Shown here: positions 5,601 through 14,045 of the stretch, piece by piece
Position numbering within the stretch: the first letter of the stretch is position 1
Layout of the letters: every line of letters begins with the position of its first letter
NCBI GenBank assembly: GCA_963699255.1
Contig: OY969425.1
Coordinates: 420,001 to 452,000 of the forward strand
DNA: 32,000 nt
Direction: 5' to 3'
From: an uncultured bacterium
GTDB taxonomy: Bacteria > Margulisbacteria > WOR-1 > CAVSGV01
The notes under the pieces: model-generated
Database searches by the model: none
The model's input: only the letters and a program-made list of their open reading frames with translations
Told to the model about the DNA's origin: nothing
Made by a program: the position numbers and the translations under genes

Positions 5601-6741
5601 TTATAGTTCTCCTGTCAGACAGATGCGGGAAAAGCCCGGTAACTGCCCCAAGTATCTGTTTTTTCGAATTCACGAGCAGATTGTATCCTTTCACTTTCAT
5701 TTTTCCCTTCTTTGAGCCAAGCGTCCAGGGTTCGAGGAGCTTTATATATTTAAGTTTACCGCGTTTTGCCGGGACGTTCACGTCATAGAACAGCGCTGAA
5801 CTGCCTTTGAACGGCGGCTGAGGGTCTACGGGGAGGTTCAAATGGACGTTCACATAATTTCCCAGCAGATCGTATCCGTAAGATTCCTTGCACAAATAAA
5901 TCCCATGAACAGGCAGAAATTCAGCCTCTATCAGATTTAAATCCATATTATTGGATAATATTATATCACAGTTGAGAGCGAGCGGGCCGAACCTGAACAC
6001 TCCGCAGAGAGCTTCGATCATCCGGATGATCTTTCCTCGAAGTTGTGTCAGCGTATCATCCGCTTCAGCGGTGGATCCCGTTATTTCTCCCAGTTCGTTG
6101 TCATATAATGTCCATCCGGGGCTTAAAAAGATCACTTTTTTGCCGTTCCATATGGCGTCGACAGCGATCTCGGGTCCATTGACGAATGTTTCGATGACGG
6201 CGTCCTTTTTCAGGCTGTGTTTGACCGCATCGGCGAAGGCAGGTTTTAGCTGATCCAGATGAGAAACAAAGTTGACGCCTTTTCCTCCCAATCCGCTTGT
6301 CGCGGGCTTTATGACAACGGGAAGGTCCCGCTCACGGACACTTTTAATGTCTTTCCATGTCCTTATGGAAGAAAGCTTTGCTTTGTTGAATGCCTTCCTT
6401 AACAGGTTCTTATTGAGTAGTATATTCATCGTTCTTTTGTCGATATGTTTTATTCCAAGCTTTGCCTTCAGGGTTTCAACCGTCCTGAAAGGCTCTCCCG
6501 TGCATGCCGTCATGACTTGTTTGATCTGTTTGATCTCATCTTTGAACCCTATCTGCAGGCCTTTCCATGTTCCCGCGGCGTCATATGTGCTTACGTTAAT
6601 AAATCCGTCAACGATGTCCCTTGCCGGGGCGTCCGGATTGATATCCGTCGCGATAATGCGGTATCCGAGGGCTTTGATCCGTTCTATATATTTGATCTGT
6701 GATGCTCCGCCGCCGATGAAAAGCACAGTGTCTTTTGTCAT
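5593..6741 (-). CDS. ATP-grasp ligase, paralogue 3
   Basis: VLFIGGGASQIKYIERIKALGYRIIATDINPDAPA (same N-terminal pattern as paralogues 1 and 2), LPVVIKPATSGLGGKGV, and NLIEAEF near the C-terminus. TAATG overlap with the pseG-like stop. Confidence 0.75.
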   Translation of the reverse strand: MTKDTVLFIGGGASQIKYIERIKALGYRIIATDINPDAPARDIVDGFINVSTYDAAGTWKGLQIGFKDEIKQIKQVMTACTGEPFRTVETLKAKLGIKHIDKRTMNILLNKNLLRKAFNKAKLSSIRTWKDIKSVRERDLPVVIKPATSGLGGKGVNFVSHLDQLKPAFADAVKHSLKKDAVIETFVNGPEIAVDAIWNGKKVIFLSPGWTLYDNELGEITGSTAEADDTLTQLRGKIIRMIEALCGVFRFGPLALNCDIILSNNMDLNLIEAEFLPVHGIYLCKESYGYDLLGNYVNVHLNLPVDPQPPFKGSSALFYDVNVPAKRGKLKYIKLLEPWTLGSKKGKMKVKGYNLLVNSKKQILGAVTGLFPHLSDRRTISG

Positions 6742-7709
6742 TACTTTTCAAGTCCCCTCAACAGCTTAATGATCCTTTGGACGCCTTTTCCATCGACCAG
6801 CTTTTTGCCGCCATTTGATAATTTCAGCGATCTCTTTTGATCGTGCTTCAGGCGATCCACAACGTTCAATATGGATGCTTCAGAAACATCCTTGAAGTAT
6901 CCCAGAGAGATAGAAGTTCCAAGTTTTTCAAAAGTGCGGATCTCATCTTTCTCCCTCATGTAATTGCTCATAATAAACGCAGGAACTCCCATGTAAGCAA
7001 GCTCATACAGGGTAGTTCCGAACGCCGTTATCGCAAGGTCCGATGAGGCCATAAGTTTTGCTATGTTCTTCGGGTTCTTAATGACCGTGAACCTGCGGTC
7101 TGACGGAATGTGCTGTTCTTTGAATGCGGCCCCCAGAACAATAACAGCCTTGAAATCCCATTTGAGATGTTTAAGTGCCTTGCAGACCTTCTGCGTGAGC
7201 CTGTTCGGGTCCGACCCTCCCATCGTAACTAGTATCGTGAACCTGCCGTGACGGATCCTCTTTGATTTAAGGAATTCGGGATTCAGCGGGAAGTATTCAG
7301 CGCCGATATATTTCTTCCCCTTAAACCCTTTCCATCTCAAGTTGTCCCTGAAATGAGATACCGGGAATATCACGATATCCGAGATGAGCCTAGCCTTGCT
7401 CGCGTTATCGATCAGGCATATTTTTGAGCTCTTCGATCTTAGCTCTTTTATCTGCGCGGATACGTCGCCCTTCTGGTCTATGACGGTCACTCCCGGATTA
7501 AAAAGTTTGATCGGGGAGCTTGAGAGCAGAAAAGCCTTAAAGCCTTTGTCCTTCAACATTTTGATCGGTGCATTATCACCGTTGACGAGAAAGCGAATCT
7601 TTTTACCTTTTGCTCTCAGCCCGGAAGCGATAGCGATAGAACGCCTCAGATGACCATAACCGGCCTCGGAACCGGCTTTGATGAAGAACAAATAATCGCA
7701 GTTGATCAT
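6741..7709 (-). CDS. pseG: PseG/SpsG-like UDP-sugar hydrolase (GT-B fold, UDP-2,4-diacetamido-2,4,6-trideoxy-hexose hydrolase family)
   Basis: N-terminal FFIKAGSEAGYGHLRRSIAIASGL matches the PseG hallmark (R.DAs..iG.GHvmRcl.LA). C-terminal half ILVTMGGSDPNRLT ... AITAFGTTLYELAYMGVP. ATGA overlap with the LmbE stop. Confidence 0.65.
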   Translation of the reverse strand: MINCDYLFFIKAGSEAGYGHLRRSIAIASGLRAKGKKIRFLVNGDNAPIKMLKDKGFKAFLLSSSPIKLFNPGVTVIDQKGDVSAQIKELRSKSSKICLIDNASKARLISDIVIFPVSHFRDNLRWKGFKGKKYIGAEYFPLNPEFLKSKRIRHGRFTILVTMGGSDPNRLTQKVCKALKHLKWDFKAVIVLGAAFKEQHIPSDRRFTVIKNPKNIAKLMASSDLAITAFGTTLYELAYMGVPAFIMSNYMREKDEIRTFEKLGTSISLGYFKDVSEASILNVVDRLKHDQKRSLKLSNGGKKLVDGKGVQRIIKLLRGLEK

Positions 7710-11931: not shown

Positions 11932-13077
11932 TTGTTCCTCCATTTATCGATCGTGTCTTTGACCGATCCTGTCACGCGTCCGATGTCGTTTTCCGTCATT
12001 TTCTGGTGGATCGGAAGGGATATCTCGCTTTCATAGAAAGATTCGGCAATTGGGAAATCGCCCTTTTTGTATCCGAATTTATTTCTGTAATAAGGCTGTA
12101 GCGGAACGGGGATATAGTGTACGTTCACACCTACGCCCAGCTTCCTGAGTCCCTCGAAGAATCTGCCTTTTTCTTCCGATCAGATTTCCGCGGAGCCTTA
12201 TCGGATAAAGATGATATGACGACCGCGCGTATGCTTTTTCAACGGGAGTGCCGATCTCTTCCATGCCGGCAAAGCTCTTGTTGTACCTGTCCGCGATGTG
12301 CCTTCTTGTCTTGACGAACCTGTCGAGTTTTTTAAGCTGTGAAATTCCCAGCGCGCATTGCATGTCCGTCAGCCGGTAGTTGTATCCTAGGTCCCGCATT
12401 TCATAATACCAGGGTCCGTCGCCGACAATGTCCCGAGTTATGCCGTGGGTCCTGAATTTCAGCATCTTTTCATAGAAGTCCTTATTGTCCGTCAGGACCA
12501 TCCCGCCCTCGCCGGTAGTGATGTGCTTGACCGCATGAAAGGACAGAACGGTCATGTCCGCAAGGACGCCGATCTTTTTGCCTTTATATTTTGCTCCCAG
12601 GGAATGGGCGGCGTCTTCGATTACGATAAGGCCGTTTTTTTTAGCTATCTTGTTCATTTCATCCATATCGCATGGATGCCCGGCGTAGTCGACAGGGATT
12701 ATCGCCTTTGTTTTTGAATTTACCTTCCATTTTATCTGTTCTATGGAGATCAGAGCGGTGTCGGGATCGATATCCGCAAAAACCGGGGTTCCGCCGCAAT
12801 AGATAACGCAGTTCGCGGACGCGACGAACGTGGTAGGGGACGTTATGACCTCATCTCCCGGAGTGATACCTGCCGCAAAACACGCGCCGTGAAGGGCGGA
12901 TGTGCCGGAATTAAAGGCAACCGCGTATTTAGTTCCGCAATATTCGGCGACTTTGCTCTCGAACAGTTCAACTCTAGGGCCCTGGGTCAGAAAATCGGAC
13001 CTCAGCGCAGCGGCGACGGCTTTTATGTCGTCCGCGTCTATAGATTGTGTGGAGTAGGGGATATATCTTCTTTTCAT
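11928..13077 (-). pseudogene. pseC: PseC-type DegT/DnrJ/EryC1 PLP aminotransferase, interrupted by a single-nt frameshift (or an assembly indel)
   Basis: Track ORFs 12079..13125 and 11928..12128 are one gene. Frame 1 carries IPYSTQSI..., [14 protein letters not shown] (PLP Lys) and SSYHLYPIRL, then turns to nonsense. The +1 frame continues EEKGRFFEGLRKLGVGVNVHYIPVPLQPYY...ISLPIH. Length 11928..13125 is 1198 nt = 3n+1. The likely true start is the ATG at 13077 (MKRRYIPY), overlapping the pseB stop (TAATG). Confidence 0.8.
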
Positions 13078-14045
13078 TATACCTTGCTTGACAGCACCTT
13101 CCTTAACTGTGCGGCTGTCATCCATTCCGTGTTGTTGTCGCTAGTATATTTGAACCCTTCGCGCAGGGTTTTTCCGCCCTTGTGCTTATGGAGGTTATCT
13201 ATTATGAAAAGATCATTAAATTCTTTTGTGATCCGGGCATCATCCTCAAGTATCATGGCTTCGTGAAGTTTTTCCCCGACCCTTATGCCGATGATCTTCA
13301 GTTTTGCCTTCGGCGCCATGGCGCGTGCAAGGTCTATCACTTTCATGCTCGGGATCTTCGGCACGAAGATCTCCCCGCCTTTCATTGCCCCGAGGCTTTT
13401 TATGACGAAATCGACTCCCTGCTGAAGAGTTATCCAGAACCTTGTCATGCGCTCGTCGGTTATGGTAAGCGTGCCGGTCTTTATCTGTTCCTGGAAAATG
13501 GGGATGACGCTGCCGCGGCTCCCCATGACGTTCCCGTAGCGGACGCAGGCGAATTTCGTCTTTCCCTTCCCTGTATATGTGTTCGCCCGTATGAAAAGTT
13601 TATCGGAACAGAGTTTTGTGGCGCCGTAAAGACTGATCGGATTGGCGGCTTTATCGGTTGAAAGTGCAATGACCCTGTCGATGCCCTGATCGATAGAAGC
13701 GTTAATGATGTTCTCGGCACCGATGACGTTTGTTTTTATCGCTTCGAACGGATTATATTCCATTGCGGGGACCTGTTTAAGAGCGGCGGCATGAACGACT
13801 ATCTCTATGTCATGAAAAGCCCTGTGAAGGCGCTCCGCATCCCTGACATCGCCGATCAAATACCTGATGGTCTTGGCATGTTTTTTAAAGAACGGGTCCT
13901 TCTGCATCTCATACTGCTTAAGTTCGTCCCTTGAGTAAACGACCAGCTTTTTGGGTTTGAACCTTTTCAGCACCGTTTCCATGAATTTTTTACCGAAAGA
14001 GCCCGTTCCTCCCGTAATAAGTATCGATTTATTGTTCAGATTCAT
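13077..14045 (-). CDS. pseB: UDP-N-acetylglucosamine 4,6-dehydratase (inverting), PseB/FlaA1 type
   Basis: [51 protein letters not shown]. About 322 aa, typical PseB length. SD AAGGAGGGG upstream. Confidence 0.9.

Follow-up and report, generated by a model that had tools for sequence, protein, structure and literature searches.

We analysed a stretch of 32,000 nucleotides (the window) from an uncultured bacterium of the WOR-1 lineage in the Margulisbacteria (CAVSGV01; assembly GCA_963699255.1, contig OY969425.1, positions 420,001 to 452,000 of the forward strand), in which an earlier note, made from the letters alone, had pointed to a set of genes of the pseudaminic acid (Pse) type at 6741-14045 with a WbqC-family gene and an LmbE/PIG-L deacetylase gene in its midst. 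In the reading that we favour, if only tentatively, this region forms the centre of an approximately 36-kb operon for a cytidine monophosphate (CMP)-activated 5,7-diamino-tetradeoxy-nonulosonic acid of the pseudaminic/legionaminic class, made from UDP-GlcNAc (UDP, uridine diphosphate; GlcNAc, N-acetylglucosamine), and it carries a conserved two-gene module for N-acyl remodelling, whose PIG-L component would deacetylate and whose WbqC component would re-acylate the sugar. The locus is a variant of the nonulosonic acid cluster and its main value lies in the testable function that it suggests, along with the related loci, for the WbqC family.

Nonulosonic acids on flagella, capsules, lipopolysaccharides and S-layers shape motility as well as phage and immune recognition, and their N-acyl groups are the chief source of their chemical diversity. 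As N5 begins as the acetamido group of GlcNAc, non-acetyl groups at this position have no assigned enzyme. The operon and its more than 80 relatives, which are spread over many phyla, offer a testable two-enzyme answer, an LmbE deacetylase and WbqC. This answer would provide the first functional hypothesis for the uncharacterised WbqC family with its thousands of members and tie the tailoring of surface glycans to the principles by which low-molecular-weight thiols are made.

The core genes and the proposed pathway

Coordinates are given as positions within the window, and related loci are coded L0xx. Every gene of the window lies on the minus strand, packed tightly as one unit. The WbqC-family gene (8386..9108) has a TTG start and encodes a protein of 240 aa that matches PF08889 with 255.7 bits (cutoff 21.3) over profile positions 1-215 of 218. 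It is joined to the gene of the LmbE/PIG-L zinc-dependent de-N-acetylase (7706..8389; PF02585, 85.4 bits against a cutoff of 28.2; motif AAHPDDE). The overlaps that had been reported around the two genes are indeed present in the junction sequences, TTGA between NeuB and WbqC, ATGA between WbqC and PIG-L and again ATGA between PIG-L and PseG. Judged by sequence, the zinc and catalytic residues of the deacetylase are intact (H12, D14, D15, H115, D119, D123 and H124 are all present, 94-100% conserved in 69 homologues). The BshB1 model matches the protein with 59 bits, under its cutoff, and among solved structures diacetylchitobiose deacetylases and BshB come closest to it.

Curated and Pfam models confirmed the identities previously assigned to the named genes of the region. 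The inverting UDP-GlcNAc 4,6-dehydratase PseB (13077..14045) scores 498.6 bits with TIGR03589 (cutoff 407.75; PF02719 E = 5.7e-105), and the pyridoxal phosphate-dependent 4-aminotransferase PseC (11928..13125) passes the TIGR03588 cutoff (426.3 versus 423.5) even as the truncated open reading frame (ORF) 12079-13125. The SpsF-type (CTP_transf_3) cytidylyltransferase (10157..11011; PF02348 E = 1.5e-28) is presumed to be the CMP-nonulosonate synthetase and gave no match to the PseF model TIGR03584. The nonulosonate synthase of the NeuB family (9105..10160; PF03102 288 bits), which has a SAF domain, matches the NeuB/LegI-type model TIGR03569 (NeuB_NnaB) better than the PseI model (381.6 versus 298.0 bits, the latter with a cutoff of 340.25) and stays under both cutoffs. 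The PseG-like UDP-sugar hydrolase of the GT-B fold (6741..7709) scores 99.4 bits with TIGR03590, under the cutoff of 153.55. While this part of the gene list stood, two frameshifts had been overlooked, as had a gene between pseC and the cytidylyltransferase gene, which encodes a NAD-dependent epimerase/dehydratase of the short-chain dehydrogenase/reductase (SDR) type, GalE/LegB-like (10993..11943; PF01370 E = 3.3e-58). It scores 170 bits with the LegB model TIGR04180 and 169 bits with GalE, both under cutoff, and is kept in the nearest relative of the locus (L004) and in a second assembly of the same organism (L086). This SDR might alter the stereochemistry of the sugar.

The operon resembles the canonical CMP-Pse route (PseB, C, H, G, I and F) in that PseB and PseC pass the equivalog cutoffs and PseG-like, NeuB-family and cytidylyltransferase proteins are present. 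It differs in having no PseH, a synthase under the PseI cutoff and nearer to NeuB/LegI, an SpsF-type enzyme in place of PseF, and additional genes for an SDR, WbqC, PIG-L and ATP-grasp proteins. The cytidylyltransferase and the synthase probably have functions analogous to PseF and PseI. The B. subtilis sps genes (SpsM, C, D, G, E and F), which make legionaminic acid from UDP-linked sugars, include likewise a dehydratase of the PseB fold, PseG-like SpsG, NeuB-type SpsE and CTP_transf_3-type SpsF, but they have an acetyltransferase as well, SpsD, and neither WbqC nor PIG-L is described for them (PMC7439481). Since such a set yields legionaminic acid and the synthase of the window favours the NeuB/LegI model, the enzyme set does not fix the stereochemistry; "Pse-type" is a label of homology and not of the product, which may not be pseudaminic acid.

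In the proposed pathway PseB would, by homology, carry out the 4,6-dehydration, PseC would install the amine at C4 that becomes N7, the PseG-type hydrolase would release UDP, the NeuB-type synthase would condense the sugar with phosphoenolpyruvate and the SpsF-type enzyme would form the CMP-sugar. LmbE/PIG-L may strip the GlcNAc-derived N-acetyl group, the future N5, and WbqC may use ATP to activate a carboxylic or amino acid, which it would ligate onto the exposed amine, an order that would mirror the BshB-then-BshC and MshB-then-MshC logic. Candidates for the acylation of N7 are the ATP-grasp ligases encoded downstream, WbqC itself or a transferase encoded elsewhere. More speculatively, the three ATP-grasp ligases, a FabG-like SDR and KduI could make or extend the acyl substituent or acylate N7; any role of the ATP-grasp proteins at N5 or N7 is pure inference. 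If WbqC is a ligase of this kind, the product of the operon would be a nonulosonate without any acetyl-CoA-derived N-acyl group added once its amines are exposed.

WbqC, PIG-L and acyltransferases in related loci

For the closest WbqC subfamily (44-60% identity) 80 genome loci were fetched, and the addition of C. botulinum and metagenome loci gave a set of 86 with WbqC identities of 44-100%, many of them on short contigs, in which all ORFs were clustered. The loci span many bacterial phyla and four archaeal lineages. PIG-L was found in 69 of the 86, NeuB in 68, a DegT aminotransferase in 67, an SDR in 56, and CTP_transf_3 and PseG-like proteins in 55 each. In 36 of 78 loci the genes of PIG-L and WbqC adjoin each other directly, and in 49 of 78 PIG-L is at most two genes away. 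One order that recurs runs from PseB through PseC, cytidylyltransferase, PseG, NeuB, methyltransferase, hexapeptide acyltransferase, aminotransferase and WbqC to PIG-L. A stricter subset comprised 44 well-flanked, non-redundant loci, with NeuB in 40 and a PseG-like protein in 37. Here WbqC is accompanied by both PIG-L and a WbqC-associated aminotransferase in 20 loci, by PIG-L only, as in the window, in 19 and by the aminotransferase only in five, and in none of the 44 are both partners missing. Thus WbqC always comes with an enzyme that generates an amine. On this conservation of gene content and order, WbqC and LmbE/PIG-L are to be regarded as a real functional pair, a conserved module of nonulosonate clusters.

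The WbqC family as a whole is large, with 7173 relatives at E <= 1e-5 in a word-indexed search and 16,528 cluster representatives from bacteria and archaea at E <= 1e-3 in an exhaustive search. Archaeal metagenome-assembled genomes with the WbqC/PIG-L/NeuB module belong to Bathyarchaeia, Promethearchaeota, Nitrosopumilales and Methanobacteriaceae (L009, L024, L045, L052, L066, L071 and L079).

The pairing could also reflect a separate pathway embedded in the operon, either bacillithiol/mycothiol-like or for another glycoconjugate, to which WbqC, PIG-L and the GT-B protein, then a MurG-type glycosyltransferase (GT), would belong. Streptomyces operons with a ProRS paralogue, an odd tRNA, GT4, WbqC, lmbE and murG (PMC10404621) have no nonulosonate genes, and the PseG-like protein of the window, besides staying under the PseG model cutoff, weakly matches GT28. 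However, this protein shares a BLAST cluster with the C. botulinum PseG that passes TIGR03590 (238 bits) and retains the His/Arg motif of PseG (G17-x-G19-H20-x-x-R23). Furthermore, PseG adjoins NeuB instead of WbqC/PIG-L in many loci, and NeuB is nearly constant in the well-flanked ones. We consider a separate pathway highly improbable.

The aminotransferase that adjoins WbqC belongs to a clade of short DegT proteins (~354 aa) distinct from the PseC-type clade beside PseB. It is encoded directly beside WbqC in 31 loci (for example L004:9003-10004 and L001:8245-9336) and is the sole DegT protein of the C. botulinum islands. The window has the PseC-type aminotransferase only, and in comparison with L004, whose WbqC is 87% identical, this difference comes down to a clean indel of 1 kb that lies between neuB and wbqC. 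These relations bear on the proposal that WbqC replaces PseH and acylates the PseC-made C4 amine (the future N7), with the deacetylase acting at another position or on another substrate. Such a role would suit an operon with PseC and no PseH and the direct adjacency of WbqC and aminotransferase genes; moreover, the sugar acylated in E. coli O121 is Qui4N, which receives its amine from a transaminase. Yet the aminotransferase clade that accompanies WbqC is the very one missing from the window, C. botulinum and most other relatives have WbqC alongside GNAT or hexapeptide transferases, and the tight WbqC/PIG-L pairing would go unexplained. We hold this replacement to be very unlikely.

That the 32 kb encode no GNAT or hexapeptide transferase, as had been claimed, is borne out. 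Pfam searches of all gene-sized ORFs of the window found neither, and custom hidden Markov models (HMMs), built from the hexapeptide (left-handed beta-helix), GNAT and formyltransferase genes seen alongside WbqC in the related loci, gave nothing against the six-frame translation (best E-value 0.095). An acetyltransferase hidden in another frame or a small ORF was rejected on these negative searches. The same HMMs were negative on the contig of the same organism that includes 4.3 kb past the window start, and because this contig reaches the end of the operon, the absence holds for the whole transcription unit. The state is a minority one: 7 of the 44 well-flanked loci have no acyltransferase on the fetched stretch (8 of 46 loci when counted within 10 kb of WbqC), and a hexapeptide, GNAT or formyl transferase is encoded in the remaining 37/44. 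In addition, there are natural GNAT-WbqC and Formyl_trans_N-WbqC fusions, as well as tandem double and triple WbqC proteins (P0320, P0358, P0380, P0241 and P0303). Since WbqC coexists with acyl transferases and is sometimes fused to them, it would be an additional step and not a substitute for PseH, and the earlier claim that the pair occupies the gap left by PseH does not hold. The accompanying idea of deacetylation followed by ligation, with WbqC as a candidate for the acyl-transfer step, is reasonable and has become better founded through the gene pairing, the catalytic residues and the predicted fold. The earlier interpretation is therefore partly supported, right in spirit and wrong in its PseH-substitute framing.

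An ordinary di-N-acetyl Pse/Leg pathway, with a PseH/LegH-type transferase encoded elsewhere and with WbqC and PIG-L tailoring something else or acting occasionally, has to be weighed as well. In L004 a GNAT is encoded ~10 kb downstream of WbqC, which shows that a transferase can do without adjacency to the module, most related loci do contain an acyltransferase, and the legH gene of C. jejuni is apart from the other leg genes (bioRxiv 10.64898/2026.04.20.719630). Besides its GNAT, L004 has the additional aminotransferase missing from the window, and the state of the operon is thus only partly common to both. On the other side, the entire transcription unit, including the 4.3 kb past the window, is free of such a transferase, WbqC and PIG-L overlap the stop codons of their neighbours inside the core pathway, and the two are conserved beside NeuB and PseG across phyla, which argues for action on this sugar. 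We regard the ordinary pathway as unlikely and keep to N-acyl remodelling of the nonulosonate.

Among the relatives, the flagellar glycosylation islands of C. botulinum encode Maf, PseB (550 bits), CTP_transf_3, NeuB, a formyltransferase, an aminotransferase, GNAT, WbqC, PIG-L, PseG and flagellin. They share with the window the trio of WbqC (55% identity), PIG-L and PseG beside PseB, CTP_transf_3 and NeuB, whereas the GNAT, formyltransferase, Maf and flagellin genes have no counterpart in the window. The flagellins of C. botulinum carry nonulosonates with N-methyl-glutamyl and other non-acetyl substituents (PMC2674064), a link to the WbqC islands at the level of the species. Methyltransferase genes flank WbqC in many loci. 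Other recurrent neighbours of WbqC/PIG-L are B12-binding radical SAM enzymes in 22 loci and class III aminotransferases in 14, besides radical SAM/SPASM proteins and a number of methyltransferase families (seen in L006-L085, for example L063:19267-20688 and L044:3272-4600), which hints at elaborate N-acyl chemistry on nonulosonates.

Predicted fold and putative activity of WbqC

A structure prediction of WbqC, which the earlier note had proposed as a check, pointed to a fold of the nucleotide-binding type. AlphaFold2 models of the window protein and of its C. botulinum orthologue (pLDDT, the predicted local distance difference test, 95.3; pTM, the predicted template modelling score, 0.91) have a five-stranded Rossmann-type core broken by a beta-hairpin and three helices, and the N-terminus, MILTAHQP, is conserved among homologues. 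The top Foldseek match of the window model in the PDB was B. subtilis BshC (4wbd; prob 0.99, E = 7.3e-3, TMq 0.46, 218 columns), followed by CTP:glycerol-3-phosphate cytidylyltransferase and nicotinate mononucleotide (NaMN) adenylyltransferase. The C. botulinum model matched best the catalytic domains of class I aminoacyl-tRNA synthetases (aaRS), namely archaeal TyrRS, class I LysRS and ArgRS, and the same cytidylyltransferase, all with E > 0.1. As the second model did not reproduce the BshC match, only the fold class is robust and not the kinship with BshC. The robust statement is that WbqC is predicted to have the nucleotide-binding Rossmann fold of the class-I-aaRS/nucleotidyltransferase type; a specific relationship between WbqC and BshC is suggested by the models but not established.

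In bacillithiol and mycothiol biosynthesis an LmbE-family deacetylase bares the C2 amine of a sugar, which is then aminoacylated by a Rossmann enzyme resembling class I aaRS, and in the mycothiol pathway the GNAT MshD caps the amino acid after MshC. To our knowledge, the activity of BshC in vitro is unresolved. The likeness to these systems lies in the pairing of PIG-L with WbqC, in the top match of the window model and in the GNAT-WbqC fusions. Unlike BshC, WbqC has 240 aa, no coiled-coil domain and no detectable sequence homology to it, and the substrate here would be a 6-deoxy diamino sugar or nonulosonate and not GlcN-malate or GlcN-inositol.

Inference from several points makes an ATP-dependent ligase, which would form an amide on a sugar amine, the most likely function of WbqC. 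Its fold class binds ATP or other nucleoside triphosphates and activates carboxylates, and its partner, mostly of the LmbE type, always makes a free sugar amine, as in the BshB/BshC and MshB/MshC pairs. The fusions with GNAT and formyltransferase domains fit a scheme in which an amino acid is first ligated and then capped at its amine, as MshC and MshD do in turn. The namesake of PF08889, wbqC of E. coli O121 and Shigella dysenteriae 7, lies in a cluster whose polymer has amide-linked N-acetylglycine (PMC7685785); in that cluster, too, a function of WbqC is only putative. Moreover, in the Streptomyces operons WbqC and lmbE occur together with a ProRS paralogue, GT4 and an unusual tRNA. C. botulinum, a carrier of the module, has N-methyl-glutamyl and other non-acetyl groups on its flagellin nonulosonates, and many loci have methyltransferase genes beside WbqC. 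A tRNA link like that of the Streptomyces operons was rejected for this subfamily, as 87 loci contained only two tRNA genes.

Removal of the GlcNAc-derived acetyl group has a precedent in Kuenenia stuttgartiensis, in which a deacetylase and a formyltransferase are encoded among leg/neuB genes and free-amine as well as formylated CMP-nonulosonates were detected (bioRxiv 10.64898/2026.04.20.719630). Deacetylation followed by re-acylation has thus already been proposed for nonulosonates, but there WbqC is unmentioned and re-acylation proceeds by formyl transfer and not by ligation. Shewanella oneidensis makes, without PseH, a mono-acetylated Pse-type sugar with a substituent of 236-264 Da and needs for this a cluster with ATP-grasp and SDR genes (PMC3765264), which resemble the genes downstream of pseG in the window and add to the case for a ligase. 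The acetamidino synthases PseA/PtmG, which turn N-acetyl into acetimidoyl groups on CMP-nonulosonates, were considered as a known counterpart of WbqC and dropped, PtmG (Cj1324) of Campylobacter being of ~45 kDa (PMC8687705) and the 240-aa WbqC of 27 kDa.

The free amines of Kuenenia allow a different view, in which the deacetylase leaves the amine free, or open to later modification by unrelated enzymes, and WbqC serves in nucleotide transfer, epimerisation or scaffolding. The fold class of WbqC indeed includes nucleotidyltransferases that form no amide bond, and sequence homology of WbqC to BshC is lacking. Such a role is however hard to reconcile with an amine-generating enzyme in 44/44 loci, with fusions of WbqC to N-acyltransferase domains and with a namesake cluster that makes an aminoacylated amino sugar, and we judge it quite unlikely. 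Returning to the ligase, we would extend it, as a possibility held somewhat less firmly than the reading of the operon itself, to the entire WbqC family (PF08889), which would then be an unrecognised and very large family (>16,000 sequence clusters) of small class-I-aaRS/BshC-like ligases that join amino acids or other carboxylic acids to sugar amines generated by LmbE proteins or aminotransferases. WbqC could then be the missing enzyme for nonulosonic acids with aminoacyl decorations, of which the glutamyl-legionaminic acid of C. botulinum is an example, stand behind the N-acetylglycyl-Qui4N of E. coli O121, account for the WbqC/LmbE/aaRS-paralogue/tRNA operons of Streptomyces and serve as a minimal model for the obscure reaction of BshC.

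A number of observations speak against a BshC-like ligase and the remodelling pathway. BshC was outside the Foldseek top 50 of the C. botulinum model, and the match of the window model has a TM score of just 0.46. No match to the Pfam/NCBIfam BshC family (PF10079) was found in WbqC, and profile comparison with hhalign, using a close WbqC profile, a diverse one of 137 sequences and a BshC profile of 31 sequences, gave probabilities < 1%, all insignificant. Searches of WbqC against PDB sequences (phmmer, hmmsearch) returned chance matches only. Collinear invariants can be read by eye, H6-Q7...L11...H18-K19 of WbqC beside Q91-Q92...L96...H104-K105 of BshC, D30-D-V32-Q33-F beside D138-E139-I-N141-F and F188-Q189-E...P194 beside M337-Q338-E339...P343. 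These parallels are a lead from manual reading, neither statistical nor evidence of homology. We found no solved structure of a WbqC protein, no biochemical function in the literature that mentions the name, no mention of PF08889 in the literature searched and no work that brings together nonulosonic acid, a deacetylase and ATP-grasp. Where a locus has PIG-L as well as the dedicated aminotransferase, the target amine of WbqC is ambiguous, a pseH may lie elsewhere in the genome, and the ATP-grasp genes occur in just two of the sampled lineages, which leaves their proposed role without comparative support.

Assembly errors and neighbouring genes

The second, independently made assembly of the organism (Logan ERR10755942, L086) is 99.96% identical over 13.6 kb, and five single-base indels are the sole differences between the two. 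Relative to L086 the window has extra bases at 310, where either assembly may be the correct one, and at 4814 and 12160, and L086 is without the bases at 4765 and 8505. L086 carries a frameshifted wbqC; the window copy is intact. Removal of base 12160 yields a PseC of 398 aa, in keeping with the uninterrupted genes of L086 and L004 (398-399 aa), while removal of base 4814 fuses ORFs of 294 and 98 aa into an ATP-grasp protein of 369 aa. Since taking out single extra bases restores both proteins, the frameshifts are assembly errors, and pseudogenisation of pseC and the ATP-grasp gene was rejected. An exact look-up found no protein on record that is identical to the window WbqC.

Downstream of pseG, still on the minus strand, the first ATP-grasp ligase gene (5593..6741) has weak ATP-grasp Pfam matches (E = 2e-6) and PDB sequence matches to PurD and Ddl (~1e-4). 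The second (4490..5600), a single gene once the spurious base 4814 is deleted, has ATP-grasp matches and carries in its repaired form the motif GPVKGDLIRDKNGKLMIMEVAPRFHG. It is followed by the gene for the FabG-like short-chain dehydrogenase (3695..4459; PF13561 E = 1.1e-61), a third ATP-grasp ligase of the L-amino-acid-ligase type (2493..3698; LAL_C2, PF18603, 63 bits), whose PDB sequence matches are 3vot (L-amino acid ligase BL00235; 8e-19) and 4dim (2e-19), and the KduI/IolB-family cupin isomerase (1762..2496; PF04962 E = 2e-81). A gene for a GH57 protein, containing window position 310, also belongs to this part.

Directly upstream of pseB a MobA-like nucleotidyltransferase is encoded (14166..14813; PF12804 E = 1.5e-11), and L004 has a gene for a 215-aa NTP_transf_3 protein in the same place. 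The region further upstream (14892-31950) holds a second set of glycan genes, encoding an MsbA-like ABC exporter, an LpxB-like GT, a DUF362 protein with a 4Fe-4S domain, a CDP-glycerol-type transferase, a 441-aa RfbH-like DegT protein, SDRs, a GT2, a thiamine pyrophosphate-dependent enzyme, two nucleotidyltransferases, a protein of the inositol-monophosphatase family, a mannitol-dehydrogenase-like protein, an altronate/galactarate dehydratase, a metallo-beta-lactamase-fold protein and GtrA. This unusual mix suggests another rare activated sugar. As the window has no Maf or flagellin gene and encodes an ABC exporter, an LpxB-like protein and GTs, the glycan is probably destined for the cell envelope.

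At its other end the contig of the second assembly runs 4.3 kb past the window start, and the operon closes there with GH57 and two weakly GT-B-like genes before a convergent methyltransferase gene. The two genes that close the operon, just past the window start (L087:12727-14834; 324 and 378 aa), have no Pfam assignment, and their faint LpxB/Epimerase_2 (GT-B) similarity makes them candidate nonulosonate transferases.

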